Source of the DNA: Candidatus Daviesbacteria bacterium | GTDB lineage: Bacteria; Patescibacteriota; Microgenomatia; Daviesbacterales; UBA10151 | DNA length: 64,000 bases | Assembly: GCA_016184225.1 (NCBI GenBank) | Contig: JACPDA010000004.1 | Location: 6,800-70,799, forward strand | Reading direction: 5' to 3' | Shown: positions 9,452 to 54,675 of the stretch, piece after piece | Layout: every line of letters begins with the position of its first letter | Numbering within the stretch: position 1 is the first letter of the stretch | Translations under genes and position numbers: made by a program | The notes under the pieces: model-generated | Told to the model about the DNA's origin: nothing | Databases searched by the model: none | Seen by the model: the letters and a program-made list of their open reading frames with translations, nothing else

Positions 9452-10027
9452 CTAATTATACTGATTTTGGGCTTTTTCTAAACCCTTTTCCAAAAGCAAA
9501 TTAAGCGCTTTGATTGCTTGTTTCATTATATGCTTAACCTGATGCTTTTCTGATTGCACAAAAGGCTCCAACACAAACTTTTCCACCACTCCTGTGGCCG
9601 GGCCAATTCCCAATCTCACTCTTATAAATTGGTCTGTCCCTAAGGCTGCAATAATAGATTCCACTCCATGATGCCCGGCTGCTGCCCCACCCATCCTGAT
9701 TTTAATTTTACCTAAAGGAAGGTCTAAATCGTCATGGACCACAATAAGGTCAGTAGTTGGTAGCTTGTAGTAAGTAGTCAGGAGTTTAATAGCCATACCA
9801 GAATTATTCATATAAGTTTGGGGTTTAGCCAGAATAAGTGACAAGTGATTAGTGCTAAGTGATAAGTCAAGGCGCAGAATTTCAGATTTAAACTTTTCTT
9901 TGTACTCCCACTTTGCACTTTGCACTTTGCACTTTGCACTTAACTCCTCCACCACCATAAAGCCTAAATTATGCCTGACACCAGCATATTTTTCTCCCGG
10001 GTTTCCCAGTCCCACTATTAGTTTCAC
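9452..10027 (-). CDS. pth: peptidyl-tRNA hydrolase carrying an in-frame repeat-derived insertion (KCKVQSAKW...)
   Basis: MKLIVGLGNPG...RHN start and an HDDLDL motif. The extra segment, relative to canonical Pth, is encoded by the TTTGCAC/TAAGTGC tandem repeats at 9844-9940. Confidence 0.9.
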   Translation of the reverse strand: MKLIVGLGNPGEKYAGVRHNLGFMVVEELSAKCKVQSAKWEYKEKFKSEILRLDLSLSTNHLSLILAKPQTYMNNSGMAIKLLTTYYKLPTTDLIVVHDDLDLPLGKIKIRMGGAAAGHHGVESIIAALGTDQFIRVRLGIGPATGVVEKFVLEPFVQSEKHQVKHIMKQAIKALNLLLEKGLEKAQNQYN

Positions 10028-10829: not shown

Positions 10830-11465
10830 TTACTGCCGTGACGAGCTAGCTTCTAATAAGTATATCACCTCTTTATCTGTCACAGGCTCAAATTGATGAT
10901 AAAACTGACCCACAGCCTGGAAATATTCAGGCGCCTCCAGTACTACACTCTGATCAACTTGCCCTTCCACCTTTCTTAGGGCATCTTGACTTGCAACAGG
11001 TACAGCCAATACTATCCTTGCTCCGTGTCTTTTTAGATATTTGATGGCTGAAAGAACTGTAGCTCCGGTGGCTATTCCATCATCTATCAAGATGGCCGTT
11101 TTGCCATTTACATCCAAGAGGGATCTACCGTTTCGATATAAATCTTCCCTTCTTTTAAGTTCTTTCCACTGATCGAGAACCTCTAGTTTCAGATCGTCAA
11201 TCTTAAGTCCTAAATCACTTAAAAGCCTATCTTCCCAGACCACTTCCCCGTCAGGATCAACTGCACCTAAAGCTAACTCCTCCTGACCAGGAGCACCAAT
11301 TTTGCGGGTGACTACAATATCCAAGGGCAAATTTAAATCTTTGGCAATTTCAGCAGCCACCACCACCCCGCCTCTGGGAATACCTAAAACAAGATCAGCT
11401 TTGATATCTTTCAATCTATTTGCCAGCAACTGCCCGGCAGATTGTCGATCCTTAAAGATCTTCAT
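10830..11465 (-). CDS. type I phosphoribosyltransferase-domain protein
   Basis: PRPP-binding loop ILIDDGIATGATV and N-terminal GIPRGG motif. Confidence 0.7.
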   Translation of the reverse strand: MKIFKDRQSAGQLLANRLKDIKADLVLGIPRGGVVVAAEIAKDLNLPLDIVVTRKIGAPGQEELALGAVDPDGEVVWEDRLLSDLGLKIDDLKLEVLDQWKELKRREDLYRNGRSLLDVNGKTAILIDDGIATGATVLSAIKYLKRHGARIVLAVPVASQDALRKVEGQVDQSVVLEAPEYFQAVGQFYHQFEPVTDKEVIYLLEASSSRQ

Positions 11466-11548
11466 AAATAGCTTTCAGTCATCAGCTATCAGCTTTCAGA
11501 CTTAAAATTGCAATAGTCTGACGACTGAAGACTGAAAGCTGACGACTA
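11466..11548. repeat. imperfect inverted repeat built from tcagct/ttcag units (related copy in frame inside the GT4 gene at 35241-35320)
   Basis: tcagtcatcagctatcagctttcagact...agtctgacgactgaagactgaaagctgacgac forms a long hairpin between two minus-strand genes. Confidence 0.6.
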
Positions 11549-13870: not shown

Positions 13871-15619
13871 CTATTTCTTAAATTGAAGCTTATACATCTC
13901 AACCAACTCTTTAACAGTTGTAGCGTCTTCAGCGTGTTTATCAGAACCACGGAACTTGACCAACCTGGGAAATCTGAGGGCGTAACCGGGCTCTGAGCCC
14001 TTTTTTCCGGCAGTATGAACCGGGCTTCTTGTGATCTCATCTGCCAACACCTCAATCACTATCTTTGGTTCCACCCAAACACTCGGTGTAATGAGCGAGC
14101 TCACTCTGGCTGGTTTACTTTGCACTTTGAACTTTGCACTTTTCACTTTTATCTCCCTCCATTCTTCATCAGTTAAACCGGTGCCGATTTTAGAAACCGT
14201 CACGAATTCGTCTTTTCCCTTATCGTAAACACCCACCAACAAAGAACCAGCTCCGAACCCTGCCCGTTTCCCCCGGCCGAAGATATAGCCTAAAATTACG
14301 CAATCAATTGTGTCTTTGAGCTCTCCTGCCGAGTGTCTTTTTAGCTTGACCCAATTGAAATTTCTGGCTCCTGCCTCATATTTTGAATCAGGCCTTTTAC
14401 AAACAAGCCCTTCCAATCCCTTGGTAATTGCATCATCAAATAATTCAATAATCCGTTTTACTGACTTGGTAAACTCCCCGGGCTGCGCAAGTAAAACCGT
14501 ATCAGGGGTGATGACTTTTTTCAATTTTTCCATCCGGGCTCGGAGGGATAAGTCAATTAAGGATTTCCCATTTAAATACATAATGTCAAACACAAAAGCT
14601 TTTAAAGGTAAGCTTTTTGCCATCTCCTCAATGTTATATTTACGCCGTCTTTTAGTGGTTTCCTGGAAAGGCAAAAATTCCTCTGACTCCGGGTTAAAAG
14701 CTACTGCTTCCGAGTCCAAAATAATGCTGTCTGCTTTAACTTGTTTCAAAATCCCCTGGATAATCTCGGGAAACATGGGTGTAGTTTCCTCTAAATTCCG
14801 GGAAAACAGCCTGACTTTTTGACCTTGTTTGTGTATTTCAATCCTGAAACCATCATATTTATACTGAACATGTGCTTCGCCGCCAAATTTTTCTAAAATG
14901 GTATTGGCATCAGGCAAACGTTCTGCCAGCTGCGACCTGATGGGTCGACCCACTGTCACATCCAAGCTCCGCACTCCCTGAATTCCCTGACTCCATAATG
15001 TTTCCGCAATCACTCCTAAATCAGAAGTTTTATTGTAAGCTTCTTCCAGCTCTTTGCGCCTTTTCCGGTCCCCCAGCTTAGCCAGGGCAAAGCCGTCTAA
15101 CACCGTCGGATCCCCTATTCCCAACCTGGAAACACCCAGAGGAATCCTGACCAGATGTTTTGCCGAAACCGGATCCATCTGCTTTAGCAGACCGGAAAGA
15201 AGTTCCAATTTTTTCTCAACTGTCCCCTTCCCGGCAGTCCCGGCAATCTCTGTCAAAGTCTTAAATACATCTGTAATTGTCATTCTGGCTTGTCCAGAAT
15301 CGATTCTGGATGCGCTTTGCTTACCAGAATGACGTTGTGCCACAACCCCTAAGTCTCCTACCTGTCCATATTCTCTCAACACCTCTTCCCGCTCTACTCC
15401 ATAAGCTCTGGCAATAGATTGAGCCACCAACTTCTCGCTCATACCGATCTCAATCGGTTCATAAAAAGGCGCCACCCGGCCCTGGATTAAATAAACCACT
15501 TTGGCAATTTCCGCAGGTTTAACTTTGGAAAAAAGCTCTGCCAAAATATCAATTAAAGAGAGTCTGGAAGAAGTCTGTTCCAATTTTTCAAAATACTCTG
15601 TAAGTTTAGAAAATTTCAT
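13871..15619 (-). CDS. lig: ATP-dependent DNA ligase (LigI/LigB family)
   Basis: KYDGFRIEIHK (KxDG adenylation motif) and the downstream ligase motifs. The true start is probably MKFSKLTEYF near 15619. The 71-codon 5' extension in the ORF track runs through a MITE-like repeat and is likely not translated. Confidence 0.85.
   Translation of the reverse strand: MKFSKLTEYFEKLEQTSSRLSLIDILAELFSKVKPAEIAKVVYLIQGRVAPFYEPIEIGMSEKLVAQSIARAYGVEREEVLREYGQVGDLGVVAQRHSGKQSASRIDSGQARMTITDVFKTLTEIAGTAGKGTVEKKLELLSGLLKQMDPVSAKHLVRIPLGVSRLGIGDPTVLDGFALAKLGDRKRRKELEEAYNKTSDLGVIAETLWSQGIQGVRSLDVTVGRPIRSQLAERLPDANTILEKFGGEAHVQYKYDGFRIEIHKQGQKVRLFSRNLEETTPMFPEIIQGILKQVKADSIILDSEAVAFNPESEEFLPFQETTKRRRKYNIEEMAKSLPLKAFVFDIMYLNGKSLIDLSLRARMEKLKKVITPDTVLLAQPGEFTKSVKRIIELFDDAITKGLEGLVCKRPDSKYEAGARNFNWVKLKRHSAGELKDTIDCVILGYIFGRGKRAGFGAGSLLVGVYDKGKDEFVTVSKIGTGLTDEEWREIKVKSAKFKVQSKPARVSSLITPSVWVEPKIVIEVLADEITRSPVHTAGKKGSEPGYALRFPRLVKFRGSDKHAEDATTVKELVEMYKLQFKK
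15278..15333. repeat. MITE-like hairpin element (ends TGTCATTCTGG...CCAGAATGAC), in frame inside the ligase gene
   Basis: Terminal inverted repeats with an internal gattctgga block. It encodes RHSGKQSASRIDSGQARMT within the ligase. Confidence 0.75.
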
Positions 15620-17701: not shown

Positions 17702-17761
17702 TTTCGCTAGGGTTTAGGGGTTAGCGACTAGGGTATAGTAGAAAAAAATTTTGCTTTTTGA

Positions 17762-17817
17762 CTATACCCTATACCCTATACCCTATACCCTATACCCTAT
17801 ACCCTATACCCTATCTT
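17762..17817. repeat. tandem heptamer array (CCTATAC) x8
   Basis: Perfect 8-copy array in the spacer between fic and the PaaX-like gene. Confidence 0.9.
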
Positions 17818-17879
17818 CCCACATTTCCCGCAAAAAATCTAATTTGAATCTTGATGTACCAATTGCTTGTACGATCGCA

Positions 17880-19364: not shown

Positions 19365-22300
19365 TTATTGGGAAACATATTCATCCCAACTCTTGATTTT
19401 TAAATCCTCCATTTTCTTATTAGTTAATGCTGAAATTAAAAGTTCTGCTGCCTGTAAATTAGTTATCAGGGGTATTCCTAAATCAACACAAGTCCTCCTG
19501 ATAATAAACCCATCGGTTTCACCTTTTTTCGAACGGGGTTTGGAAATGTTTATCACTAAATCAATACCGTCTTGTTTTAACAGGTCCAAAACTGACGGGT
19601 GCTTTCTTTCCGAAATTTTAGAGACTCTGGTACTTTGAATATCATTCTTACTTAAAAACTCATGGGTCTGCGGTGTCGCATATATCTTAAAACCTAAGTA
19701 GAATAAATCCCTTGCAGACGAGAGCAAATCCAGTTTATTTTCTTCTCCGCCAATAGTTAATAAAACTGATTTTTGGGGCATCTTAAAACCGGTGGCCAGT
19801 ATGGCTTTAAGATAAGCTTCCTGCAGGTCATCACCAAAACAGGCCACCTCCCCAGTTGAAGACATCTCCACCCGAAGCCTTGGATCAGCTCCCTTAATCC
19901 GGCTAAAGGAAAACTGAGGAGCTTTTACCCCGACATAATCTAAGTCTAAGGTATTAAAGTCTCCCGATATCTTCTCCCCCAGCATCACCTGAGTTGACAT
20001 TTCCACAAAGTTATAGCCGGTTACTTTAGAAACAAACGGGAAAGAGCGGGAAGCGCGCAGGTTTAATTCAATCACCAAAACCTGATTATCTTTGGCTAAA
20101 AACTGGATATTAAAAGGACCGTTTATATTCAATGCCTGGAGAATCTTTCTGGTAGCATCCTTAACTTTTCTCACAGTTTCCAAATACAACCGCTGCGGCG
20201 GCAAAACTATGGTGGCATCCCCGGAGTGCACCCCGGCATTTTCCACATGCTCGGAGATGGCGTAAATTAGAAGCTGGCCATCCTGTCCCACCCCATCCAC
20301 CTCAATCTCTTTGGCTCCTTCCACAAATTTAGAGACAACCACCGGATGCTCTGCCGATATATCGGCTGCGCTTTTTAGCGCTCTTTTCAAATCAGTGCCG
20401 GAATATGCCACGTTCATGGCAGAACCTGATAAAACATACGAGGGCCTGATCAAAACTGGATAGCCTATTTTTCTGGCAAACTTAAGTGCCTCATCAGCAG
20501 TTTTCAAGCTCTGCCAATCCGGCTGCAGAATTCCCAGTTGATCCAGCAGTTTAGAAAACTTATCCCTATCCTCTGCCCGGTCAATGCTTTCCGGGGAAGT
20601 CCCCAGTATTTTATAACCGGCCCGGAAACAGTCCATTGCCAAATTATTGGGAACTTGCCCGCCAAAACCTAAGACAAGTGCTGAGTGCTTAGTGTTTAGT
20701 GTTGAGTTTTTCCAACTTTGCACTTTGAACTTTGCACTTTGCACTTCTATTTCATAGATATCACTCACCCGCTCAAAGGTCAGTTGCTCAAAGTACAACT
20801 TATCTGCCGAGTCGAAGTCAGTAGAAACAGTTTCCGGATTACAATTTATGATAATTGTTTCCAAGCCCCTACTTCTAAGTGTTTGCGCAGCTGTCACCGA
20901 GCACCAGTCAAACTCCACTGAGGAACCAATCCGATAAGGCCCGGAACCCAAGACGATTGCCTTTTGCTTCTTTTTGTCATCCTGGCTTGTCCAGGATCCT
21001 TGCTTTTTTGATTCTGGACGCACTTCGTTTGCCAGAATGACATTCTCTTTCTCCGTTTCATCTCCATGATATGTCAAATATAAATAATTCGTCTTGGCCG
21101 GATATTCTGCTGCCAGGGTATCAATATGTTTGACCTTCGGCACTATGCCATTCTTTTTCCTAAACTCCCTTACTTCTTCCTCCGTTTTTTTAAGCCCTTT
21201 AGCCAATATCTTATCTGAAAACCCCAACTTCTTAGCTTCTCTAACAATTTCTGACTGCAACCTGTTGCCTGTAACCTGTAACCTACCTTCAAACTTCACT
21301 ATTTCCTGAATCTGATACAAAAACCAAGGATCAATGCCGGTTGCCTTATAGACAGCCTCTACAGATTCGCCCTTGCCGAATCTTTTGGCAATCACAAATA
21401 GCCGCTCTGTTGTAGGTAAAAGTTTCGTGTCGTCAATACTGTTTTGCAGTAACCCATCTTGACCTGTTTCCAGCATCCTGATGGCTTTTTGCAGCACTTC
21501 CGGAAAACTTCGTCCGACAGCCATCACCTCTCCCACGCTTTTCATCTCCGAACCAATCGCCTCTTTTGCCCCCACAAATTTTTGCAAATCCCAGCGCGGG
21601 ATCTTAACCACTATATAGTCTAACGCCGGCTCAAAAAATGCCGAAGTTGACAGAGTCACGCTATTTTTTAACTCCGGCAGGTTATAACCTAAGGCAAGTT
21701 TGGCGGCAATGTAGGCCAAGGGGTACCCGGTAGCTTTTGAGGCCAAAGCAGAAGACCGGGACAACCTGGCATTTACTTCAATCACCCGGTAGTCATTATT
21801 TTTAGGATTTAAGGCAAACTGGATATTACATTCACCGACAATCCCTAAATGTTCAATCACCGCAAGAGAGATTCTGCGTAAAAAATGATACTGGTAATTA
21901 TTAAGAGTTTGGGAAGGAGCCACTACAATACTCTCTCCGGTATGGATGCCTAAAGGATCCATATTTTCCATATTACAAACAGTAATTTTGTTGCCTAAAT
22001 TGTCCCGGACTACTTCATACTCAACCTCTTTCCAGTGCTTTAAATACTCTTCTACAGCTATCTGGGGGGCCTGCTTCAAAGCTAAAGTCACCATCTGGAT
22101 AAGCTCTTTTTCATTTTCTATAACTCCGGACCCCAATCCTCCCAAGGAAAAACCGCTTCTTATGAGTAAAGGGTATCCTAACGTTTCTGCAATTTTTAGG
22201 GCCTGATCTAGTGAGCGGGCAAACCCGCCTTTGGGAACCTTAACACCTATCTTGGCCAGCTCCTTAGCAAACAGTTCCCTGTCTTCTGTAATCCGAATAC

Positions 22301-22726: not shown

Positions 22727-23845
22727 TTATATTAAATCCAAAAATTCATCAAATAAATAACCGCCCTCTGTCGGACCCGGGTTGGCTTCCGGGTGAAATT
22801 GTACTGCTATAAAAGACTTTTTATTGTGCCTAATCCCCTCATTTGTGCCGTCATTTAAATTAACAAACCACTCTAGCCACTCTTTTCCTAAAGATTTCAT
22901 ATCCACCGCGAAACCATGATTTTGACTGGTTATGATAGCTTTCTTGTTATTTTGATCTAGTACAGGCTGATTTTGGCTTCTATGACCGAACTTTAGTTTG
23001 TAAGTTTCTCCTCCAGCTGCCAAAGATAAAATCTGGCTGCCTAAACAAATACCAAAAGTGGGGACACCTGCATCAAGCAACTGCTTAACAGTTTCTATAG
23101 TGGCTTTAGCCTGTTTTGGATCTCCCGGGCCGTTGGAAATTAGAACTCCGTCAAATCCGCCAGCTGGCGGACTAGCTATCGGATTAAAATCCCAGGGCAC
23201 CCTGGTTACCCTGACTCCTCTTTTAACTAAACTCCTGATAATATTTTCCTTGGCTCCGCAATCAATTAAGACTATATTTTTCTTGTTCATCCTGAGCGAA
23301 GTCGAAGGACCATACACCTCCACCTTTTTACAACTAACATAAGGCAAGATATTCTCTTTATTCGGATCATAAATAGAGTCGCTAGTCGCTAGAGTCGAGA
23401 GTCTAGACTGTTGATTCCTAGACTCTAGATTCTTGACTCTAGACTCTACTTCTATTCGACCAAGCATCACTCCATGCTTCCGAAGCTTAGTAGTCAACTC
23501 CCTGGTATCAATCCCCTGCAAAGCAGGTATCCCTTCATCTTTCAGCCACTCCCCCAAAGTTTTCTGGCTTTCAAAATGTGACGGGTGGTCAATATAGTTT
23601 TGCACAATTAACCCCTTAACCTGAATTTTTTTTGATTCCCAAAACTTTTTTCCCGGCACCCCGTAATTTCCCTGCAAGGGATAAGTCAAAACTAGGATTT
23701 GGCCAAAATAAGATGGGTCTGTCAAGGATTCCGGGTATCCCACCATACCGGTATTAAAAACCACCTCGCCTGAGGTAGCTACCTCTTTCCCAAAGCTTTC
23801 TCCTAAAAAAACTGTCCCATCGGACAGAATCAGTCTCCCTTGCAT
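22727..23845 (-). CDS. carA: carbamoyl-phosphate synthase small subunit (glutamine amidotransferase)
   Basis: Class I GATase triad region (GICLGSQ...HPE). It contains an in-frame PPAGG palindrome and the SRLSTLATS repeat module. Confidence 0.9.
   Translation of the reverse strand: MQGRLILSDGTVFLGESFGKEVATSGEVVFNTGMVGYPESLTDPSYFGQILVLTYPLQGNYGVPGKKFWESKKIQVKGLIVQNYIDHPSHFESQKTLGEWLKDEGIPALQGIDTRELTTKLRKHGVMLGRIEVESRVKNLESRNQQSRLSTLATSDSIYDPNKENILPYVSCKKVEVYGPSTSLRMNKKNIVLIDCGAKENIIRSLVKRGVRVTRVPWDFNPIASPPAGGFDGVLISNGPGDPKQAKATIETVKQLLDAGVPTFGICLGSQILSLAAGGETYKLKFGHRSQNQPVLDQNNKKAIITSQNHGFAVDMKSLGKEWLEWFVNLNDGTNEGIRHNKKSFIAVQFHPEANPGPTEGGYLFDEFLDLI
23381..23460. repeat. 80-bp repeat module (gtcgctagtcgctagagtcgagagtctagac...) shared with the fpg gene at 29805-29885
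   Basis: Near-identical blocks encode ...SRLSTLATS... in frame in both CarA and Fpg. Confidence 0.8.
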
Positions 23846-24799: not shown

Positions 24800-24800
24800 A

Positions 24801-24824
24801 TGTCATTCTGGCTTGTCCAGAATC
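24801..24824. repeat. MITE-like half element (TGTCATTCTGGCTTGTCCAGAATC) immediately upstream of pyrB
   Basis: Same terminal motif as the other family members; here it is a short palindromic core only. Confidence 0.7.
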
Positions 24825-25216: not shown

Positions 25217-25486
25217 TCATTAGATCAGAAACTTACAAGGGCCTTTTATGGCGGTGCCACCTTGCTTAAATTTTTTTACAAAAATTTATCTCTTTCAGCG
25301 CTCCGTTCCGCCAGCTGGCGGACGACACGCTTATTGTATTTGCACAGTTCAATTTCTGTCATACTCTATCCTTCGACTTCGCTCAGGACTGATGTATGCT
25401 GCTTGTCCGCTGCGGCGGACTTATCGTTGCTTACGCAAACAAACGCATTATGAATACAGTATACCATAAAAACTTAAGTTGTCAAA

Positions 25487-26545
25487 TCACCCTTTCAGAA
25501 TTTGTCCATATGGACCAAAAATGTTTTGGCCATCATAAACCATCTTCCCTCTTAAAACCACTTTTTTAACTCTCCCTGTTACCTTCATTCCAACAAAGGG
25601 GGTCCAACCACATTTGGTAAACAAGTTGTTAGGGTTTAGGGTGTAGGGTATAGTTTCTACTTCTACAAAAGTTTCTGGTTGTTGGAGAATACCAAAAATT
25701 CTTTTGGGATTGGTGCTTGTCAACTCGATCAATCTCTCCAGAGTCAATCGCCCATCATTTACAGCTGTCAGTAGCAGTGGTAGCGTAGTTTCCAACCCCG
25801 GCACACCGTATGGCGGCTTTTCCCCTTCTTTTTCTGCTCTGGTGTGCGGAGCATGATCAGAGGCAATCATATCAATGGTCCCCTCAACCACGGCTTGCCA
25901 TAGGGCATCTTGATCTTCTTTGCTGGAAAGAGGTGGCTTCATCAGTCCATATGCACCCAACCTTTTTGCGTCTTCATTAGTTAAAAACAGATGGTGACAG
26001 GTTACCTCACTGCTTATTTGCAGGCCATTCCTTTTGGCAGCTTTAATTAGTTCAATCTCTTTTCGCAAAGAAACATGACAGACATGCAACTGATTACCAA
26101 ATTTTTTGGCCAAGAAAATGGCTTTTTGCAACGTATCACCTTCTGCATGAACTAAAACAGGCAGGTTTTTTGGCCAGGTGGAAAAAACAGCCTCCAAAGT
26201 TTGATCATCCTCCATCAATAAATCCCCGGTGGTCTGATTCATATAAACTTTCAACCCAAACACCTTACCGGAAATTTCATTGAAATACTGAATGCTTTTA
26301 CTGCTGGCCCCAAAATGAAACCCCACATCAGCATAAATTCTTCCCCTGGCCAGATCTATTTTTTCCTGCAAAGCCTGCGGTGAAATAGTGGGAATAGGAT
26401 TATTCGGCATATCCAAAACTAAAGTATACCCACCGGCAATGGCAGCTTTGGTGCCTGTTTCAAAGTCCTCTTTTTGGGTGGCACCCGGTTCCCGAAGGTG
26501 CACATGAGGATCAATTAACCCGGGGAGTTTAATCTTATTTTGCAT
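25487..26545 (-). CDS. pyrC: dihydroorotase-like cyclic amidohydrolase
   Basis: GLIDPHVHLREPG metal-binding motif and the pyrimidine gene neighbourhood. Confidence 0.8.
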   Translation of the reverse strand: MQNKIKLPGLIDPHVHLREPGATQKEDFETGTKAAIAGGYTLVLDMPNNPIPTISPQALQEKIDLARGRIYADVGFHFGASSKSIQYFNEISGKVFGLKVYMNQTTGDLLMEDDQTLEAVFSTWPKNLPVLVHAEGDTLQKAIFLAKKFGNQLHVCHVSLRKEIELIKAAKRNGLQISSEVTCHHLFLTNEDAKRLGAYGLMKPPLSSKEDQDALWQAVVEGTIDMIASDHAPHTRAEKEGEKPPYGVPGLETTLPLLLTAVNDGRLTLERLIELTSTNPKRIFGILQQPETFVEVETIPYTLNPNNLFTKCGWTPFVGMKVTGRVKKVVLRGKMVYDGQNIFGPYGQILKG

Positions 26546-27903: not shown

Positions 27904-29313
27904 CTACTTCCCTTCCCAATGCCCCAACCCTAAAAACTCCCTCACCCGATAAGATAATTCATGTTTTCTAAAAAATAAACTAGGATTAAGCCCAAAGAGC
28001 CCCACCATAATTACCAAAAACCCTAGTCCGATAAAAATAGGGGTGGTGCCGAAAATATCAGCCAAAATACCTACCAGAAAAATCGGGATTAAAGAGAGCG
28101 CAGACATGGCCACCCCTAAGACAGAAAAAACTTTCCCCCGGTTGCTTTCCGGGGTATTTTGCTGCAGTACTGTTTGTGAAGGAATCAGGATGGAAACTAT
28201 AGCCATTCCTATTAAAAACGACCCCACTACCAAAACTTTAGAAAGCGGCAACTGGTAAAAAAAGGGCACGGGCCGCGGATGCTTAAAATAATTAACAGCA
28301 GGAGACACAAGCGGGGCAATCCCTACCAAAAAAAGCAATAACCCCACAAAAAGAATAGCTCTGGAAACTAATTTCCTCTTGACTAAACTGCTCCCAAATT
28401 TGCCCAGGATCATTCCTCCAGTGATAATCCCCAACCCCAAGGGGATAATCAACACATAAGTTGCATCCGTTGCTTTAATTTGCAATGACCTTTCCAAGAA
28501 ACCAGGGGCTAAAACTGCCATAATGCCTATGCCCATCTGGACTCCTGCCAGGATCAGGATAGAAGATAGCACCGGCAATTTTCCCTTAATAATCCTCATT
28601 GTTTCTGAAATTTCAAACATGCCGATCTCTTTGATCTCGGAATATTTTCTTTTGGCCAGAGCCCAGATAAGCCTTTTACCTTGTGCATCCGGCGTAGATT
28701 GAATGGAAGGAAACAAAAGTGACAATATAAATGCCCCGGCCAAAATTACTCCACCCAATCCAAATACCACATTAATGCCTAAATGGGTAATCAAAGGCCC
28801 GGCCAAACCAAACCCCACCAAAAAGGCCGAGTACAATGTAGCCGAGAAGAGCGAGTTGGCAGTCAACAGTTGATTCTTTTTCACCACCAAAGGGATGGCA
28901 GAGGCTTCAGCCGGGGAATAAAATTGACCTAAAGCATTAATTAAAAAAGTTATCGCTAAAATTGCCGGAAAGCTTCCCTTAAAAAAAATCAGGCTGAAAA
29001 AGAGGATACTTAAGAAAAAATCAATCACCATAATGATCTTTTTCCGGTCAGTAATGTCAACCAGTACACCAGAAAATAACCCTAAAATTACTGCCGGCAG
29101 GTAAATTGAAAAAAGCAGGGCCGACACAGCAGTGTTGGAATCAGTCAGTTTAAAAACCCAAATAATCAGGGCAAAGTTTAGGGCATTAAAAGATAATTGA
29201 ACTAAAATTTGGTTAACCCACAGGTTTAGAAAACCCTTGTTTTTTAACACCCCGGAAAAGGAGACTTTTTCAGCCATAGGGTAGATTATACGGCTTTCTG
29301 GCAATGAGGGCAA
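27904..29313 (-). CDS. MFS transporter
   Basis: Twelve or more predicted TM helices and MFS-like loops. Confidence 0.7.
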   Translation of the reverse strand: MPSLPESRIIYPMAEKVSFSGVLKNKGFLNLWVNQILVQLSFNALNFALIIWVFKLTDSNTAVSALLFSIYLPAVILGLFSGVLVDITDRKKIIMVIDFFLSILFFSLIFFKGSFPAILAITFLINALGQFYSPAEASAIPLVVKKNQLLTANSLFSATLYSAFLVGFGLAGPLITHLGINVVFGLGGVILAGAFILSLLFPSIQSTPDAQGKRLIWALAKRKYSEIKEIGMFEISETMRIIKGKLPVLSSILILAGVQMGIGIMAVLAPGFLERSLQIKATDATYVLIIPLGLGIITGGMILGKFGSSLVKRKLVSRAILFVGLLLFLVGIAPLVSPAVNYFKHPRPVPFFYQLPLSKVLVVGSFLIGMAIVSILIPSQTVLQQNTPESNRGKVFSVLGVAMSALSLIPIFLVGILADIFGTTPIFIGLGFLVIMVGLFGLNPSLFFRKHELSYRVREFLGLGHWEGK

Positions 29314-30293
29314 AGGTAGGTGCCGCGGCCGCCGAGTGAGATTTTTTTAATCTCTGTCCCGCAAACTTTACAAGGGTGTTTATCGCGCCAGTAGACAAAG
29401 GCATAATCTAAAAAATAACCTTTGTGTCCTTCCGCATCTACAAAATGTGCCCTGGTTGAACCTCCGTGCTTTATTCCTTCCCTTAAAGCCCTGACTACCC
29501 CACGGTGTAGAGCTTGGAATTTCCTATCAGTCAATGTAACCACTTTAGTCCGAGGATCTATTCCAGCCATAAAACAGGCCTCATTAGAGTAGATATTTCC
29601 CACTCCTGATACCACGCTTTGGTCCATAATAGCCACCTTAACTGGCATTTTCTTATGTTTCAATAAATTCTGCTTAAGAACCTGCCATGTAAACCCTTTT
29701 TCTAAGGGCTCCGGTCCAAGATTCTTGATTGAACTGTCCACTGTAACCTGTTGCCTGTCCACTACCTTCACCCATCCAAACTTCCTCTGGTCATTAAAAT
29801 ATAAGTGGCTAGTCGCTAGAGTCGAGAGTCTAGACTTTTCATATTTTTTTCCTAGACTCTTACCACTTGACTCTAGACTCTGAAGTGTAAATATCACCCT
29901 GGTATGAGAGTTTGGCATCTTACCTAACATATCCTCAGTCGGATGTCCGCCAATAAATTTATTGTCACCTGTCGCCTGTTGCCTACCGCCTTCCCATATC
30001 AGTTGGCCTGACATCTTCATATGAAAAAGAAGAGTTATCAGGTTAGAGGTTACAGGTTTCAGTTTTGAAACTTTTTTAACTGTCCCCTGTCCACTGTACC
30101 CTGTACCCTCTGCGAGGTCTATACCGAGCAGCTTCGCTCTTCTCCAAACTTTGAGTACTTTTTGTCCCTGGGCCAAATTAGGGTTTCCAATAAAAGATTT
30201 AGGAGATAAAATCTGGATCTTTTGGATCTTCAGTCCAATAATTTTATTTTGTAGACCCAGTCTAATGACCTCAACTTCGGGAAGTTCTGGCAT
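29286..30293 (-). CDS. mutM: formamidopyrimidine-DNA glycosylase (Fpg/MutM) with repeat-derived in-frame insertions
   Basis: N-terminal MPELPEVE and a C-terminal zinc finger C..C...CPHCQ. The protein is about 335 aa versus about 270 canonical; the extra segments are encoded by GTTACAG repeats and the SRLSTLATS module. Confidence 0.85.
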   Translation of the reverse strand: MPELPEVEVIRLGLQNKIIGLKIQKIQILSPKSFIGNPNLAQGQKVLKVWRRAKLLGIDLAEGTGYSGQGTVKKVSKLKPVTSNLITLLFHMKMSGQLIWEGGRQQATGDNKFIGGHPTEDMLGKMPNSHTRVIFTLQSLESSGKSLGKKYEKSRLSTLATSHLYFNDQRKFGWVKVVDRQQVTVDSSIKNLGPEPLEKGFTWQVLKQNLLKHKKMPVKVAIMDQSVVSGVGNIYSNEACFMAGIDPRTKVVTLTDRKFQALHRGVVRALREGIKHGGSTRAHFVDAEGHKGYFLDYAFVYWRDKHPCKVCGTEIKKISLGGRGTYLCPHCQKAV

Positions 30294-30321
30294 AAGGATA
30301 TTGTACTACAGAAGAATCAGT

Positions 30322-31718: not shown

Positions 31719-32424
31719 TCTGAGTCAACTCAAGCGGGGTACCGGAAGCCACAATTTTTCCGTGGTTTAAGAAAATCACATTATTGGCAATCTCTTCTAT
31801 TTCCCACATGTTGTGGGAAGTATAAAGAATGGTAATTTTTTCCTCTTTTTGGATTTGTTTGAGCAAATTAATCCCTTTATCCACCACATCAGGATCCATG
31901 GAAACCATCGGCTCATCTAAAAGCAGTAGTCTTGGTTTATTAAGCAAGGCCTTACACAGGTTAGCCCTAGCCCGTAGCCCTGTTGATAAATCCCGGGTAG
32001 CAGTGTTGCGGAAATCAATCATTTCAAAAAGCTGGAGCAGTTCCGTGATTCTTTTTTTGGCCTCCGGCACTTCATAAAGCTTGGCATAAACCAATAAGTT
32101 CTCCCAAATAGTTAAATTCCAAGGCAAATTAAAATCAGCCGAAGCATAATTTACTTCTTTAAAAATTTCACTCCTGTCTTTGGAAATATCCTTGCCAAAA
32201 ATACGGATATTACCCTCATCCGGAACAATCAAACCTAAAATGCAATAAATAGTGGTAGATTTGCCTGCCCCATTTGGTCCTAAAAATCCCAAAATCTCCC
32301 CTTCTTTCAAAGAAAAAGAAATATTATCAATAGCAGTAAATCCGCCGGCTGGCGGACCAAAGTTTTTCCTTAAATTTTTCACTTCCAAAATCACCCTTTT
32401 ATCCATAATTTTCCCTTCTGTCAT
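31639..32424 (-). CDS. ABC transporter ATP-binding protein
   Basis: Walker A GPNGAGKST, ABC signature and Walker B LLLLDEP. It contains an in-frame PPAGG. Confidence 0.88.
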   Translation of the reverse strand: MTEGKIMDKRVILEVKNLRKNFGPPAGGFTAIDNISFSLKEGEILGFLGPNGAGKSTTIYCILGLIVPDEGNIRIFGKDISKDRSEIFKEVNYASADFNLPWNLTIWENLLVYAKLYEVPEAKKRITELLQLFEMIDFRNTATRDLSTGLRARANLCKALLNKPRLLLLDEPMVSMDPDVVDKGINLLKQIQKEEKITILYTSHNMWEIEEIANNVIFLNHGKIVASGTPLELTQSVLKLEGDEPNLRDVFIHLSRSKYES

Positions 32425-34730: not shown

Positions 34731-35892
34731 CTTTTTTAAGATTCTTCTCTATTAATTCCAAAATTTCTTTTTTAAATCGCTCCTTAGAAAACCTTTCGGC
34801 ATTTTTCCTTAAATTTTCAGCTTTGAAATTATCTTCCCTGAACTCCCGCAGTACACCGATCAAACTCTCTACTGTCACCATTCCCGGGCCACCGTATAGT
34901 AATCCTGTTGCCTGGTCCACCACTGTTTCCAAAAACCCGCCGCTTCTCGGAGCTATCACCGGAGTTCCGGCTGCTTGGGCCTCAACTCCGGTAATGCCAA
35001 AATCCTCATCTTCGGAGGCCAAAATCAGAGCTTTAGCGTTTTGCAAGAGTTTGATTCTTTCTTCGTCAGAAACCCAACCAAGAAAGGCATCAGGTTTCAG
35101 GTTACAGGTTACAGCAAGATTCTTTAAATTGTCCAGTTCAGGGCCGGTTCCGGCTACTTTTAGCGGCAACCCTAATTTTCCGCAAGCCTCCACCACTATA
35201 TCCACTCCCTTTCCCCTTACTAATCGACTTAAAACCAGGAAATAGCTATCAGCTTTCAGCTTTCGGCTTTCAGACTGTCTAACGACTGCGGGCCCCCGAA
35301 GGGGAGGACGACTGAAAGCTTTAATATCTACCGGCGGGTATATCACCACACTATCCCTTCTATAAAACTTCTTGATTCTCTCTTGGATATTTTTGGAATT
35401 AGCCACCAATATATCCGGCCGCTGGGAAACTTCAAAATCATAAATCCGTAAGAAATGATTTGCTAATTCTCCTAAAATCCGGGTGACAGGATTCTTCTTA
35501 TAATTAAATGAGGTGGTGTAGCCATATAAAAAACGCGGGGGGGTGTGAATATAGCTTAAATGCAAAGCTTCAGGTTTAGTGATTGCCGCCTTAGCTGAAT
35601 AAGTAGCAGCGGAGGTAATTACCAAATCATAGGCCGAGAAATCAAAGCTTTCAAACATCATCGGGGCAAATAATCTAAAAGGAGACAATAACTTATTGGC
35701 AAAAGGAAATTTCTGAAACCAAGAAGTCCGAATATCCCAACTTTTAAACCTTTTGCCGTTTTCTCCCATTGAACTAAGGTTTACATAAGCAGTATACAAA
35801 GGAGCCTCCGGAAAAATTTCATGCAAAGCTTCCAGCACCCGCTCAGCACCACCATATTCCCTTAAATAATCATGCGCCAAGGCTACTTTCAT
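34723..35892 (-). CDS. glycosyltransferase family 4
   Basis: EX7E-type motif (EDFGITGVEAQAAGTPVIA). It contains in-frame GTTACAG and tcagct repeat blocks. Confidence 0.8.
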   Translation of the reverse strand: MKVALAHDYLREYGGAERVLEALHEIFPEAPLYTAYVNLSSMGENGKRFKSWDIRTSWFQKFPFANKLLSPFRLFAPMMFESFDFSAYDLVITSAATYSAKAAITKPEALHLSYIHTPPRFLYGYTTSFNYKKNPVTRILGELANHFLRIYDFEVSQRPDILVANSKNIQERIKKFYRRDSVVIYPPVDIKAFSRPPLRGPAVVRQSESRKLKADSYFLVLSRLVRGKGVDIVVEACGKLGLPLKVAGTGPELDNLKNLAVTCNLKPDAFLGWVSDEERIKLLQNAKALILASEDEDFGITGVEAQAAGTPVIAPRSGGFLETVVDQATGLLYGGPGMVTVESLIGVLREFREDNFKAENLRKNAERFSKERFKKEILELIEKNLKKDA

Positions 35893-38241: not shown

Positions 38242-38252
38242 CTACATCTAGT

Positions 38253-39675: not shown

Positions 39676-41889
39676 TCAAGGATTTAATAGTTTCATTTCT
39701 CCCCAGTTCTTACCAACTTTGAGGTCAACTATGACAGGCACTGAAAGTTTGAGAGCATTTTCCATTTTTTCTTTCACCATTTTCCCCACTTCGCGAACGC
39801 TTCGCGGGGTGCATTCAAACAAAAGCTCATCATGAACCTGGAGAATAAGTGAACAGTGCTGAGTGCTAAGTGCTAAGTCCTTTTTCCCACTTTGCACTTT
39901 TCCCTTTGCACTTAACACTTTCCCAATCTCCACCATGGCCTTTTTAATCATATCAGCCGCCGTGCCTTGGACCGGATGGTTGACTGCAGCTCGCTCCCCG
40001 GCTGCCCTGATCATCCGATTCCCCACTTTTAACTCCGGAATATACCTTTTCCTGCCCCAAATGGTCTCCACAAAACCGTTCTCATAGCCAAATGCCAAAG
40101 TATCTTCCGTCCATTTCCTGACTTTGGGAAATTCGGCAAAATACTCATCAATATACTGGCGGGCCAACTCATATGGCACTTCCAGTTGGCGGGAGAGCGC
40201 ATGCGGCCCCTGGCCATAAAGGGTGGCAAAATTCATGGTTTTACCCACCATCCGCTGCTCTCTTGTCACCTTTTCCAAAGAGACATTAAAGATTTTTGAA
40301 GCAGTTAAGGCATGAATATCTACTCCTTCCTTAAAAGCTTTTTTCAAACCCGGGTCATCTGCCAAATGGGCCATAATCCGCAGTTCAATCTGTGAGTAAT
40401 CAGCTGTTAGCAACACCTTACCTTTGGGGGCCACAAATGCTTTCCGAATTTCTCCTCCGGCCTCGCCTTTAATGGGAATATTTTGTAAATTAGGGTCTTT
40501 GGAAGAAAGCCTGCCGGTAGCAGCCCCTTCTACATTAAAAGTGGAATGGATCCTACCGGTGCTATCTACAAATTTAGGCAGGGCATCAATATAGGTGGAA
40601 ACCAGCTTAAATAATTGCCGGTATTCCAGCATCAGTGGCACTGCCGGATGGGTTAGCGCTAACTCACGCAGGGTGGCTTCATCAGTGGAACGGCCGGTTT
40701 TGGTTTTTCTCACCACCGGCAGCTTTAGCTCATCAAACAGCACTTCTGACAACTGCTTTGGGCTGTTCAGATTGAACTGATGTCCTACTTTTGAGTAAAT
40801 CTCCTTTTCAATCTTGGCTAATCTGGCTTTTAGCTGTTTGCCAAACCTGCTTAAAAACTTCAGGTCAATTAATACCCCGGCCTCTGACATTCTTTTAAGA
40901 ACAGGCTCTACCTGATGATCCAAATCTGCTGTTTGCTGGTTTTGTGTCATTCTGGCTTGTCCAGAATCCTCTTCTTTAGATTCTGGAGTCCTCACTGCGT
41001 TCGTCCCCAGAATGACATTTTGGGAACCGGAAACCCTGGCTATCAAACTTTTGAATTCGAGTTCTTCAAACAACTTAACCACTTTTTCTTTATCAAAATC
41101 GTGCACTATACATTCTTTCAAATTAAGCTTAATTGGTGCTTTTAAATCCAAAGTAGCCAGTCTTTTGCTCATCACGGCAGATTCTGCCCCCTCGGAAAGC
41201 AGTGTTTGCATCCTCTCCGGCAAGGTTTTCAGATTTTCAGATTTGTAAATATTTTCAACTGAACCAAACTGGTGAATCAATTTAGTGGCTGTGACATCAC
41301 CAATTCCCGGCACCCCGGGAATATTATCCGAGGCATCCCCGGAGAGCCCTTTATAATCAGTTAATTGTTTTGGGAAAAAGCCATATTTGGCCACAAACTC
41401 CTCCAGTCCATATAATCCTACATCTGCCAGGGTTTTTTTGGGCATAAACACCTTAACTTTCTTATCAATCAGCTGCATGATATCCCGATCCCCGGTCACA
41501 ATAATAGTTTCCAAATCCGTTTCTTTCTCTGTTTGCTTTGCCAAGGTTCCGATTAAATCATCTGCCTCATAACCTGCCAGCTTAAACTCCGGAATATTAA
41601 AAGCTTTAGTTATCTCATGCACCCTTTTGTATTGACCGGATAAACCCTCATCAGTGGCAGTCCGGGTGGCTTTATACTGGGTATAAGCTTGATGCCGGAA
41701 AGTCGGACCCTTTTCATCCCAGGCAATAGCCAAATACCGCGGGTGCAGCTCCGAAATCACCCTTAAAACCATGGAGGAAAAGCCGTATACGGCATTGACC
41801 AACTCACCCGAGGAGGTAGTAAAAGGCGGTGTGGCATGATAGGCTCGGTGCAACAGGGCATTCCCATCCACTAATACTAAACGTTTCAT
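39676..41889 (-). CDS. polA: DNA polymerase I (5'-3' exonuclease plus polymerase domains; short, 737 aa)
   Basis: 5' nuclease motifs at the N-terminus and polymerase motifs A, B and C at the C-terminus. A MITE-like element and a heptamer-repeat block are inserted in frame in the inter-domain region. Confidence 0.9.
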   Translation of the reverse strand: MKRLVLVDGNALLHRAYHATPPFTTSSGELVNAVYGFSSMVLRVISELHPRYLAIAWDEKGPTFRHQAYTQYKATRTATDEGLSGQYKRVHEITKAFNIPEFKLAGYEADDLIGTLAKQTEKETDLETIIVTGDRDIMQLIDKKVKVFMPKKTLADVGLYGLEEFVAKYGFFPKQLTDYKGLSGDASDNIPGVPGIGDVTATKLIHQFGSVENIYKSENLKTLPERMQTLLSEGAESAVMSKRLATLDLKAPIKLNLKECIVHDFDKEKVVKLFEELEFKSLIARVSGSQNVILGTNAVRTPESKEEDSGQARMTQNQQTADLDHQVEPVLKRMSEAGVLIDLKFLSRFGKQLKARLAKIEKEIYSKVGHQFNLNSPKQLSEVLFDELKLPVVRKTKTGRSTDEATLRELALTHPAVPLMLEYRQLFKLVSTYIDALPKFVDSTGRIHSTFNVEGAATGRLSSKDPNLQNIPIKGEAGGEIRKAFVAPKGKVLLTADYSQIELRIMAHLADDPGLKKAFKEGVDIHALTASKIFNVSLEKVTREQRMVGKTMNFATLYGQGPHALSRQLEVPYELARQYIDEYFAEFPKVRKWTEDTLAFGYENGFVETIWGRKRYIPELKVGNRMIRAAGERAAVNHPVQGTAADMIKKAMVEIGKVLSAKGKVQSGKKDLALSTQHCSLILQVHDELLFECTPRSVREVGKMVKEKMENALKLSVPVIVDLKVGKNWGEMKLLNP
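40945..41017. repeat. MITE-like element, in frame in the polA linker
   Basis: TGTCATTCTGGCTTGTCCAGAATC...CCCCAGAATGACA encodes ...TPESKEEDSGQARMTQNQQ... Confidence 0.75.
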
Positions 41890-53295: not shown

Positions 53296-54675
53296 TCAAG
53301 ACTCAAGTTTATCCCTAAACTGGTCATAACTGATTTGGGTAGCTTTATAATCCTGGATCTCAAAAGATTCTTCTTTGAAAGTGATCTTTTTATTTTCTTT
53401 TAAGTCTTTCCTTAAAACTACTCCTGGACCAATAAGTGAGTTGCTCCCTACTCTGACACCGGGCATAGTGGAAGCATTCACCCCTATCCGCACCCCTTTT
53501 CCGGCAATCAAACCTAGCTTGTTTCTGCCTGTTTCAAGATGTTCCTCCCCCACAGTAACATCTTTATTGTCTAATCGCAGATTGGCCAACACAGCTCCCG
53601 AACCCATACCAAAATCCCCTTCTAATACAGAATCCCCGATATAATTGGTGTGGAACCAGGAATCTGGGCCAATATAGCTTCTGGTAATATCGGAATTAAA
53701 ACCGGTCACACAGCCGTCCTCCAGGTTTGATTCACGGACCATGGAATTGTTTCCCACGATGCAGTTTTTTCCGATGTAACAAGGGCCTTTAATCACCGCT
53801 CCTTCAAACACCTTTGCCCCATCTTCAATAACCACCTTGCCTTCAATAGTGGCCTTTTCCGACACTTTTGCCCCCGGGGAAATTTTCTGTTCAATTTTTG
53901 AGTCTTCGAGAAAATAGTCCACGTCTATCTTGGATAAAAAGTAAGCTGTAACATCCAAAATATGCCAGGGGTATTTTAAAGGAATCCAGGTTCCTTCGTA
54001 TTTTGAAAACCTAACATCCAATCCGTCTTTTATCATTTGATCTAAAGCCACTTCATAAACATCATCCCTTCGACTTCGCTCAGGGTCAGAGACTTTTTCT
54101 AGGTACTCAACTAGCTTTTTACCATCTTTAAAATAATCCACTACCAGTTTGACCAGATCAGAAGGCTCCCTACCTTCTCCTGGTTTCTCTACTATCCCCT
54201 GTACCCTGTCACCTGTAACCTTTAGATATCCTCCAGGAAAGTACTTATCCATTTTCAGTCCTGCCAGAACTACATCTGCCTGAATTCCCAAAACTCCCTG
54301 GAAAACTTTAGGGTTCAAGACATCTTCAGCATTAACTATTAACACTTCTCCCTCTATCAAATCTTTGGCAGAAAGCAGAGCATCTGCCATTCCTTTGGGC
54401 TCATTTTGAACTGCTATTTGAAAATTCAAACCCAAATCCTGGGCAACTTTTGCAACTGCTTCTTTGCTTTGGGGATTTGTTACGATGATAAAGCTACCCA
54501 GTTCACCTGGAAGGTGGGCTTTGTTCCGTAGGATGTTTTCTCCTTCCAGGTGGAGCTTGATTTTCTGCAAGTTATGATACAACAGGGGTTTGCCTAAAAA
54601 GGGAATCAGGCATTTATCAGTTTGGATCGGCCACATCCTTTTGCCCTCTCCCCCAGCCAAAACAATAATCTTCAT
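53296..54675 (-). CDS. sugar-phosphate nucleotidyltransferase with a C-terminal left-handed beta-helix (GlmU/GCD1-like)
   Basis: MKIIVLAGGEGKRM NTP-transferase motif and multiple hexapeptide repeats. It contains an in-frame GTTACAG block and an ERSRRDD repeat. Confidence 0.8.
   Translation of the reverse strand: MKIIVLAGGEGKRMWPIQTDKCLIPFLGKPLLYHNLQKIKLHLEGENILRNKAHLPGELGSFIIVTNPQSKEAVAKVAQDLGLNFQIAVQNEPKGMADALLSAKDLIEGEVLIVNAEDVLNPKVFQGVLGIQADVVLAGLKMDKYFPGGYLKVTGDRVQGIVEKPGEGREPSDLVKLVVDYFKDGKKLVEYLEKVSDPERSRRDDVYEVALDQMIKDGLDVRFSKYEGTWIPLKYPWHILDVTAYFLSKIDVDYFLEDSKIEQKISPGAKVSEKATIEGKVVIEDGAKVFEGAVIKGPCYIGKNCIVGNNSMVRESNLEDGCVTGFNSDITRSYIGPDSWFHTNYIGDSVLEGDFGMGSGAVLANLRLDNKDVTVGEEHLETGRNKLGLIAGKGVRIGVNASTMPGVRVGSNSLIGPGVVLRKDLKENKKITFKEESFEIQDYKATQISYDQFRDKLES

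Follow-up and report, generated by a model that had tools for sequence, protein, structure and literature searches.

Heptanucleotide-repeat arrays and hairpin modules lying in frame in housekeeping genes of Candidatus Daviesbacteria: a probable class of repeat DNA spreading at the DNA level

Two kinds of described repeats come closest to the element treated here, a family of tandem heptamers and heptamer-armed hairpins that lies in frame in the DNA glycosylase gene fpg and other genes of a 64,000-nt stretch of Candidatus Daviesbacteria DNA (contig JACPDA010000004.1, positions 6,800 to 70,799; hereafter the window). Rickettsia palindromic elements (RPE; Ogata et al. 2000) measure about 105-146 bp and are described as lying in frame in genes (reviewed in PMC3184786). 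Heptanucleotide repeats are given as the commonest long class of simple sequence repeats (SSR) in many bacteria, and a polymerase-footprint slippage hypothesis has been offered for them (Mrazek 2007, summarised in PMC4679880 and PMC4692102). The short tandemly repeated repetitive (STRR) sequences of cyanobacteria, the GGGAATC repeats of Xanthomonas and the GGGGA(T/C)T repeats of Nostoc are described as intergenic (PMC4692102), and the TAACTGA repeats of Beggiatoaceae, Cyanobacteria and Bacteroidetes are almost all intergenic or located at protein ends (PMC4679880). Here we propose that the GTTACAG/ACAG copies of the window are probably part of a clade-wide class of heptanucleotide-repeat DNA that arises and spreads at the DNA level, with the surviving copies filtered by selection.

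The copies in Daviesbacteria resemble RPE in being short dispersed palindromes in frame in protein genes, including housekeeping genes, in their presumed translation, in occupying tolerant places of the protein, in varying by presence and absence among orthologues, and in having no transposase of their own. They differ from RPE, which belong to Alphaproteobacteria and show no 7-nt periodicity, by having arms built of tandem heptamers in modules of 63-110 nt, and by occurring also as solo arrays and as length-neutral 'overwrites'. The tie to RPE would therefore be an analogy of mechanism and not membership, and no sequence relationship is expected. With the STRR-type repeats they share short 7-nt tandem arrays, several families per genome, related units mixed within one array and occasional inverted pairs with stem-loop potential; the reverse orientation can be translated in both, as LSVISYQ in TAACTGA-type repeats and as QSSAISYQ in inserts of Fpg alleles. 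Unlike the STRR-type repeats, which are overwhelmingly intergenic and whose few copies within open reading frames (ORFs) belong to hypothetical proteins or protein ends, the Daviesbacteria arrays lie mostly in ORFs of housekeeping genes and avoid stop codons in a frame-specific manner.

Repetitive extragenic palindromic (REP) sequences, REPINs with their REP-associated tyrosine transposases (RAYT) and MITEs (miniature transposable elements with inverted repeats; Nezha, Correia, BOX, RUP, BRE) are short repeats too, dispersed, non-autonomous and able to form hairpins. The definition of REPs makes them extragenic. Most copies described here are intragenic and, unlike REP elements and MITEs, have periodic heptamers as arms; no RAYT or insertion sequence (IS) partner, target-site duplication or unique terminal inverted repeat was seen in the window, and no Y1 transposase was found among its scanned ORFs. 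Some BRE (Bordetella) and BOX elements are fused in frame to genes (PMC3184786).

Nested GC-rich mini-hairpins found inside some of the arrays (at 35294-35304 of the window, and at GT4 site 2 of loci L001, L002 and L009) recall the small dispersed repeats (SDR) of Nostoc. These hairpins of 21-27 nt, which Elhai et al. reportedly described in 2008, are said to be often nested in tandem heptamer arrays; to our knowledge, SDR families have been reported from Nostocaceae only. SDR are also mentioned in PMC5861425. Unlike SDR, the nested mini-hairpins of Daviesbacteria are single copies, and they are likened to SDR by description and not by sequence. A literature search on repeats in Patescibacteria, Daviesbacteria or the Candidate Phyla Radiation (CPR) returned nothing relevant, which is not proof of absence. 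By analogy, the present case would join the architecture of heptanucleotide repeats to in-frame selfish DNA of the RPE kind, and for its phylum we found no such description.

Heptamer arrays of the window and the clade

The initial annotation had reported in-frame runs of a GTTACAG heptamer at three sites in fpg and at one site each in carB, a GT4 glycosyltransferase gene and a nucleoside triphosphate (NTP)-transferase gene. Such runs are present at all six places, each in frame in a minus-strand ORF, and encode V-T-G- or C-N-like peptides as annotated; in fpg, 29742-65 translates as DRQQVTVDS, 29961-90 as GGRQQATGD and 30041-110 as GTGYSGQGTVKKVSKLKPVTSNL. The other three runs are at 21257-86 (carB), 35091-115 (GT4, where the family has the opposite orientation) and 54196-228 (NTP-transferase). 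Host gene identities were checked by Pfam and PDB searches. GTTACAG has 15 exact matches in the window versus 4.8 expected, a number reached in 0 of 100 shuffles, and about half of these matches are isolated singletons. With up to one mismatch allowed, AACCTGTAAC gives 12 matches versus 3.9 expected and the periodic pattern ACAGNNNACAGNNNACAG gives 14 versus 0.13, which fall on the six claimed sites and on two probable chance matches at 22272 and 50371. The unit is better written as NNN-ACAG, in which the ACAG core is constant and three bases vary (GTT, GTG, GGT, GGG, GCA, GCG, TGG). The GTTACAG family is real, and it belongs with several other unit families to a class that extends through the clade.

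Seven is the sole over-represented tandem period in the window, with 15 regions versus 0-2 for periods 3-13 and 15, and its harmonic, lag 14, gives 8 regions. The related set of 17 Daviesbacteria loci (181 kb; Fpg 58-76% identical; mostly metagenome-assembled genomes labelled Daviesbacteria, Microgenomates or Patescibacteria) holds 52 period-7 arrays versus at most 4 for other periods. Tandem Repeats Finder (TRF) detected about 25 period-7 arrays with several different units in the window, and by TRF and the lag-7 scan every listed site carries 3.1-7.6 copies, as required of heptanucleotide tandem repeats (unit of 7 nt, at least three head-to-tail copies). Contrary to the mostly intergenic repeats of Nostoc, Xanthomonas and Beggiatoaceae, only two of the 15 window arrays fall outside ORFs and 13 within them, the window being 91.5% coding. 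Eleven of these 13 sit in genes with housekeeping-type Pfam domains, distributed over nine annotated enzyme genes (fpg, carB, carA, pth, polA and the GT4, ligase, amidohydrolase and NTP-transferase genes). For the window and 18 loci together, 54 of 69 arrays fall in open frames of at least 100 codons, and such frames make up 89% of the bases.

The arrays take two forms: i) solo arrays of 3-5 units, and ii) hairpin modules of 63-110 nt, composed of an array, an A-rich loop and an inverted array. Nine modules in the window fold with z scores from -1.9 to -5.2; the palindromic character does not apply to solo arrays. Within a module the pairing is between the 4-5-nt unit cores, with internal loops at the variable positions. 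The families comprise ACAGGNN, AAAGTGC (the 'TTTGCAC' family of the initial annotation), CTAGACT, CAGCTAT/CAGTCGT and TAGGGTA; two arrays are perfect and most are interrupted. The families are dispersed in multiple copies, AAAGTGC in pth, the ligase gene, carB, polA and a TrpRS/TyrRS-family gene, and ACAG at the six sites. Unit families are shared among genomes of the clade. A search for genome-specific unit families gave only a weak signal, with 8.7% of within-genome and 5.8% of between-genome pairs matching at up to one mismatch.

Structure at the RNA level was also looked for. The arms show no G·U strand asymmetry, as their mismatches are not wobble pairs and both strands fold about equally well. 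In Rfam, only two tRNAs of the window reach the gathering score, and there is no match in 29600-30300 at E <=1.

Filled, empty and copied sites

ORF 29286-30293 (-) encodes Fpg/MutM in full, and its N-terminal, H2TH and zinc-finger domains are all present, the N-terminal domain having 174 residues versus a 117-position profile. The protein is 335 aa long, solved Fpg/MutM chains have 266-275 aa, and 120 close homologues range over 276-356 aa. An alignment of 18 alleles at the protein and DNA levels, with the 120 homologues as a wider set, locates extensions of the window Fpg at four sites, A (about 66 nt), B (21 nt), C (63 nt) and D (21 nt), which add about 23 + 7 + 21 + 7 = 58 residues; the earlier estimate of about 65 extra residues was approximately right, and the 'one other module' that it invoked is the CTAGACT-family module of site C. 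Site A, at 30041-30110, does not consist of three loose copies; it is one hairpin module. In plus-strand coordinates, 30040-30062 hold the coding-strand right arm of 3.3 inverted units (CTGAAAC CTGTAAC CTCTAAC CT), 30063-30079 a 17-nt A-rich loop, and 30080-30110 the coding-strand left arm of about 4.4 units (AGGGTAC AGGGTAC AGTGGAC AGGGGAC AG); the RNA fold has -22.8 kcal/mol (z -2.8).

Comparison of inserted and uninserted alleles, which the initial annotation had proposed, revealed filled and empty sites among related Fpg genes. Across 120 alleles, site A is filled in 46 and empty in 74, site B is filled in 55 and site C in 15. Site A hosts at least 10 unrelated insert families among Fpg homologues, mostly hairpin-forming, and for five unrelated inserts at this site in other genomes the z scores of folding are -2.1 to -4.2. 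Parsimony gain/loss counts of 38, 41 and 13 changes are inflated by a weakly resolved neighbour-joining tree and by recombination, and show the scattered distribution only. The closest allele, L018 (78% amino acid identity), bears the site-A module at 95% nucleotide identity, lacks exactly the 21 nt of B and the 63 nt of C, and has a different unit at D. L018 and L020 have orthologous site-A modules, and the copy in L019 is half-deleted. Site D is 21 nt longer than in L011, the only allele without it, and arrays of other units occupy it in other genomes. In an AlphaFold2 model of moderate quality (mean predicted local distance difference test score, pLDDT, 67), used solely for placing the inserts between strands, sites A-C form low-confidence coil between adjacent β-strands and site D is modelled as strand plus helix.

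Several steps in the life of these copies can be read from the alleles. The empty alleles of site B in L143 and L008 read TGGGAA-GGCAACA-GTAAATTT, and the filled alleles retain both flanks around four units (GGCAACG GGCAACA GGTAACA GGCAACA in L141). The alignment thus shows a native heptamer, GGCAACA, that was evidently amplified in place from 1 to 4 copies, adding 21 nt, so at least this site did not arise through a foreign copy. Within a single 90% identity cluster, the Fpg proteins of two near-identical strains are alike except for 11 residues of the site-A module. In the DNA, a 33-nt deletion of the loop and right arm between CAGTA direct repeats has left a solo array, which shows modules decaying, to judge from this pair, through microhomology deletion into half-modules, that is, solo arrays.

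At site A, the window and L018/L020 are 91-96% identical over the module and its flank, with 94% identity at third codon positions, compared with 75% and 54%, respectively, over the rest of fpg; these alleles were chosen for sharing the module, an ascertainment caveat on this comparison. The excess of third-position identity suggests that the module-bearing segment is much younger than the gene lineages, and the segment was probably moved together with its flanks by homologous recombination.

Copies are also shared between unrelated genes and genomes. The fpg site C and carA modules have identical arms, irregular units included, with different loops, and a mean column identity of 86% over the alignment. 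The odd unit GTTCAAA is common to the ligase solo array and the left arm of the carB module. The right arm of fpg site A is 88% identical to the GT4 site-2 array, flank included (family D14), and the intergenic module at 11465-11548 matches the in-frame fpg site-A module of L009 at 84% over 80 nt. In L023, another Patescibacterium, infB holds in frame a module that shares the ACAG architecture and the unit family, at a turn of the GTPase domain of initiation factor IF-2, and in 9 of 41 related IF-2 proteins this turn has received different inserts. The L023 module is one result of scanning metagenomes for the ACAG hairpin architecture, which is present on at least 120 contigs. These alignments show whole modules that have, by all appearances, been copied between unrelated sites and genomes.

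The copies are fitted to the frames that hold them. Filled and empty alleles always differ by multiples of 3 nt (+21, +63, -33 and similar). Intergenic copies have stops in all six frames, and in-gene copies are open in the frame of the gene. The inverted unit CTGTAAC contains TAA, and unit 1 of fpg site A and unit 3 of the GT4 array read CTGAAAC just where this TAA would be in frame; unit 1 in infB reads CTGCAAC at the equivalent place. Relative to the carA copy, fpg site C has a 5-nt patch that removes an in-frame TAG, a change needed because its left arm is read in another frame. A preference of genes for stop-free consensus units was sought and not found (33 of 54 versus 56-63% expected). 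Stops are avoided through single variant units, not via the choice of unit. The multiples of 3 nt and the frame-specific removal of stops together would mean that in-gene copies are translated.

The reading of the heptamers as insertions holds for the fpg sites, which are net insertions, and fails for carB and the NTP-transferase, which are length-neutral, and nearly so for GT4. The carB array aligns ungapped to a loop segment of CPS1 and the NTP-transferase array to a loop segment of the 5z09 enzyme, and the GT4 ACAG array exceeds the shortest alleles by just 12 nt. At its two sites the syntenic GT4 gene has, depending on the genome, arrays of differing but related units, hairpin modules, or nothing. 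The NTP-transferase resembles archaeal-type dual sugar-1-phosphate nucleotidylyltransferases. All told, the observation made in the initial annotation is confirmed and its interpretation is partly supported.

Table 1. Heptamer arrays and hairpin modules in the window
Feature	Position	Strand	Remarks
pth, two inverted AAAGTGC-family arrays	9828..9946	(-)	arrays flank about 41 nt of coding sequence; (CACTTTG)4.7 array perfect
Intergenic hairpin module, CAGCTAT family	11465..11548	no strand	stops in all six frames; z -5.2
ATP-dependent DNA ligase, solo AAAGTGC array	14114..14154	(-)	bears irregular unit GTTCAAA
Intergenic hairpin module	17704..17816	no strand	TAGGGTx arm paired with perfect (CTATACC)7.6 array
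carB, hairpin module, AAAGTGC family	20672..20752	(-)	18-residue insertion relative to CPS1; z -4.0
carB, solo array, ACAG family	21255..21286	(-)	GRLQVTGNRLQ; length-neutral relative to human CPS1
carA, hairpin module, CTAGACT family	23375..23450	(-)	sister copy of fpg site C; left arm in different frame
Amidohydrolase (dihydroorotase-like), solo TAGGGTx-family array	25627..25654	(-)	IPYTLNPN
fpg site D, solo array	29734..29765	(-)	GTGGACA GGCAACA GGTTACA GTGGACA G; DRQQVTVDS
fpg site C, hairpin module, CTAGACT family	29800..29885	(-)	+63 nt, 21 residues
fpg site B, solo array	29962..29985	(-)	GGCGGTA GGCAACA GGCGACA GGTGACA; +21 nt, 7 residues
fpg site A, hairpin module, ACAG/GTTACAG family	30040..30110	(-)	adds about 22-23 residues (Fpg 63-85)
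GT4 site 2, solo array, ACAG family reversed on coding strand	35089..35115	(-)	GCTGTAA CCTGTAA CCTGAAA CCTGAT; AVTCNLKP
GT4 site 1, hairpin module, CAGTCGT/GAAAGCT family	35235..35310	(-)	common to L005, L009, L017
polA, hairpin module, AAAGTGC family	39850..39926	(-)
NTP-transferase, solo array	54192..54228	(-)	KVTGDRVQG; length-neutral; encodes hairpin before EKP motif

Distribution beyond Daviesbacteria and other repeats of the window

ACAGG-type heptamer hairpins occur, among the matches listed, on metagenome contigs with GC contents of 0.34-0.73. On contigs outside Daviesbacteria they are depleted from long open frames, 36% versus 74% for the control at low GC and 26% versus 78% at mid GC. 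A Planctomycetota contig, L091, is a dense carrier with many unit families at gene boundaries (for example 3855-3959, 5713-5759 and 10365-10417). It is one of four high-GC contigs (with L038, L053 and L079) on which dense heptamer-armed hairpins stand at gene boundaries, with up to 11 arrays in 4-14 kb, and L079 bears a CAGCTAT-type unit like that of the window at 11465-11548. On L043, an ORF of 1268 aa at 5923-9726 (GC 0.46) contains three in-frame segments derived from heptamer hairpins, such as VTGHRSQVTGGSKLSPDTCHLTP; in-frame carriage apparently is found outside Daviesbacteria as well, here in a large and probably non-essential gene. What sets Daviesbacteria apart, as judged from these contigs, is the colonisation of gene interiors.

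In the window, a TrpRS/TyrRS-family gene (49742-50734) has a degraded AAAGTGC-family array at 49970-50014 (VQSDKGKVQS), so that a housekeeping gene of the aminoacyl-tRNA synthetase class is affected as well. In the GT4 site-1 module, a GC-rich mini-hairpin at 35294-35304, CCTCCCCTTCGGGGGCCCG with a UUCG-type tetraloop, replaces a left-arm heptamer unit, adding 12 nt and encoding PPLRGPA. The nested GC hairpin CCCCTTCGGGG of this window copy was considered as a family of its own, but it occurs just once, no more than chance would give. Heptamer arrays of L001, L002, L009 and L142 hold nested inserts of a similar kind, 17-27 nt long (CGCTTCGC...GCGAG).

Several other palindromes are dispersed in the window. 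A small one, GTCATTCTGGCTTGTCCAGAATC, has four copies (15261-15301, 20958-20998, 24784-24824 and 40928-40968), of which those in the DNA ligase gene and polA are in frame as DSGQARMT, that in carB is read in another frame as GSWTSQDD, and one is intergenic; its peptide is found also in Fpg site-A inserts of other genomes (P0014). The GC-rich palindromes TCCGCCAGCTGGCGGAC (four copies: 23150-23172, 25301-25323, 32335-32357 and 34437-34459) and ACCCTGAGCGTAGTCGAAGGGC (three copies: 23289-23312, 51490-51513 and 53274-53297) are partly in frame, in carA and ORF 33675-34730, and partly intergenic, and related peptides (PERSRRA, PFDYAQG) are inserted in the Fpg of L015-L017. A 38-nt palindromic repeat, ACCAATT..GT(A/G)CGATCGCA..AATTGGT, with a HIP1-like CGATCGC core, is located at 17858-17895, 18384-18421 and 42325-42362. 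Two of its copies flank the gene 17880-18383, which encodes a protein with HxlR and PaaX/Cas2-like domains, and the repeat may be an operator.

Longer repeats are also present. A 262-nt direct repeat (91% identity) lies at 1423-1684 and 5383-5644. With one copy the aminotransferase gene 5382-6581 ends at its 3' side; the second, probably a gene fragment that was duplicated, overlaps an 83-aa ORF with no Pfam match. Two further dispersed repeats, of 145 nt (74% identity; 9305-9449 and 35918-36062) and 78 nt (86% identity; 37623-37700 and 38252-38329) lie in or near intergenic regions. AT-rich 9-nt tandem repeats with TATAATCTT-type units are found at 13431-13498 and 13826-13875, in the region of a gene of the 23S-rRNA-intervening-sequence-protein family (13298-13819). 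At about 54.7 kb, near a tRNA gene (54704-54776), gene orientation switches from almost all minus (5-54 kb) to plus (54.8-60.5 kb), and at the same place the cumulative GC skew ceases to fall. The site may be an origin of replication or a strand-switch point of another kind.

Origin and meaning of the copies

We consider it probable that these heptamer copies are a repeat-DNA class of the clade, born and propagated at the DNA level; they look like selfish or neutral repeat DNA and not like a designed protein feature, and we saw no evidence that they serve the host proteins. Selection would act only as a filter: copies that are in frame, stop-free and placed in permissive surface turns would survive, leaving extra peptides or, in the length-neutral cases, rewritten ones. 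The copying step would most likely be slippage during replication, or template switching that is primed by microhomology and uses other heptamer arrays. Such a step would explain how 21 nt in heterogeneous units are added at once, why target-site duplications are missing, and how length-neutral overwrites and inverted arms come about. Alternatively, a hairpin-specific transposase encoded elsewhere in the genome could do the copying.

A number of observations sit uneasily with this explanation. Filled/empty junctions show no consistent direct repeat that could be a target-site duplication; the flanking codons often differ and the junctions are blurred. Pfam scans of 52 of the 69 ORFs in the window, 64 kb of a genome of roughly 770 kb, gave no transposase, RAYT or reverse transcriptase. 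Three of the six sites are length-neutral, where simple insertion fails and patch replacement or a compensating deletion is needed. Unit variation is concentrated at the same 2-3 positions around a constant core and ACAGG-type hairpins occur in distant phyla; both could point to a constraint or machinery with sequence specificity, which would not be expected from neutral slippage. The nucleotide conservation of site A could reflect purifying selection on DNA or RNA, and translation of the modules was inferred from frame and stop statistics, not observed directly.

Among other explanations, the arrays might be ordinary SSRs, immobile products of local polymerase slippage, perhaps phase-variable contingency loci that switch genes by frameshift. 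The local amplification at fpg site B, the two perfect arrays and reports of heptanucleotides as the most abundant long SSR class in many bacteria (PMC4679880, PMC4692102) speak for this, but we think it unlikely: near-identical modules with shared irregular units recur in unrelated genes and genomes, most arrays carry interruptions that suppress slippage, and growth from 1 to 4 units by single steps would need frameshifted intermediates. Allele lengths differ by multiples of 3 nt and never by ±7, no observed unit change shifts a frame, and the hosts are housekeeping genes (fpg, carA, carB, pth, polA, ligase, infB) and not surface or virulence genes. Somewhat stronger doubt attaches to functional nucleic-acid elements kept by selection, such as mRNA structures for translation pacing or transcript stability, terminators, or phased sites for proteins binding single- or double-stranded DNA. 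Hairpin potential is indeed retained although the sequences of the families differ completely, the constant 4-5-nt core with its in-register variable positions recurs in distant phyla, synonymous sites are more conserved in the module than in its host gene, and intergenic copies stand at gene boundaries. Yet presence and absence vary among close relatives, even inside one 90% cluster, most alleles have nothing at the same Fpg site, the mismatched pairs of the arms are G·A or C·U instead of G·U with neither strand favoured, Rfam offers no match, and the conservation runs on into ordinary coding flank, which fits a recombination tract better.

It is highly improbable that the inserted peptides are themselves adaptive, as loop extensions selected for example for new interactions in reduced-genome CPR cells. 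Inserts do occupy defined turns and persist in frame in many lineages, but the periodicity is 7 nt, not 3 or 21, and so has its source in the DNA; different genomes have unrelated peptides at the same site, the model gives inserts A-C as low-confidence coil, and the same element is found between genes with stops in all frames. The isolated singletons among the exact GTTACAG matches would suit chance or an assembly artefact, which we practically discount in view of the excess of the periodic pattern over shuffle controls, the recurrence of the features in independent assemblies (NCBI, JGI, ENA, Logan) and arrays shorter than a sequencing read.

A more speculative proposal, which we rate as unlikely, is that the arrays are written by a dedicated sequence-guided mechanism, for instance a template-jumping polymerase or repair pathway that would copy several units at a time from donor arrays. 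It is suggested by the strict 7-nt register of the constant 4-5-nt core (ACAGG/CCTGT) and its 2-3 variable positions, the one-step gain of 21 nt, the length-neutral overwriting and the inverted-array hairpins, as well as by an architecture that Patescibacteria have in common with Planctomycetota and, according to the literature, with Cyanobacteria. If such a mechanism exists, the β-turn loops of essential CPR proteins would be continually remodelled, and modules would spread with co-converted flanks in a homing-like manner.

For the probable reading, that of a repeat class spreading at the DNA level, Daviesbacteria would join Rickettsia as an independent second example of 'selfish DNA in protein-coding genes', apparently a much denser one, in which the intermediate steps are visible: local amplification, copy-paste, stop-codon removal and decay by microhomology deletion. 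It would also offer a link to the long-unexplained excess of heptanucleotides in bacteria, and the natural filled and empty alleles offer a test of repeat origin. If the pattern is general, a sizeable part of the unexplained length variation and of the 'insertions' in housekeeping proteins of CPR/Patescibacteria would be repeat-DNA debris and not adaptation, with consequences for annotation, phylogenomic alignments and structure prediction in Patescibacteria.

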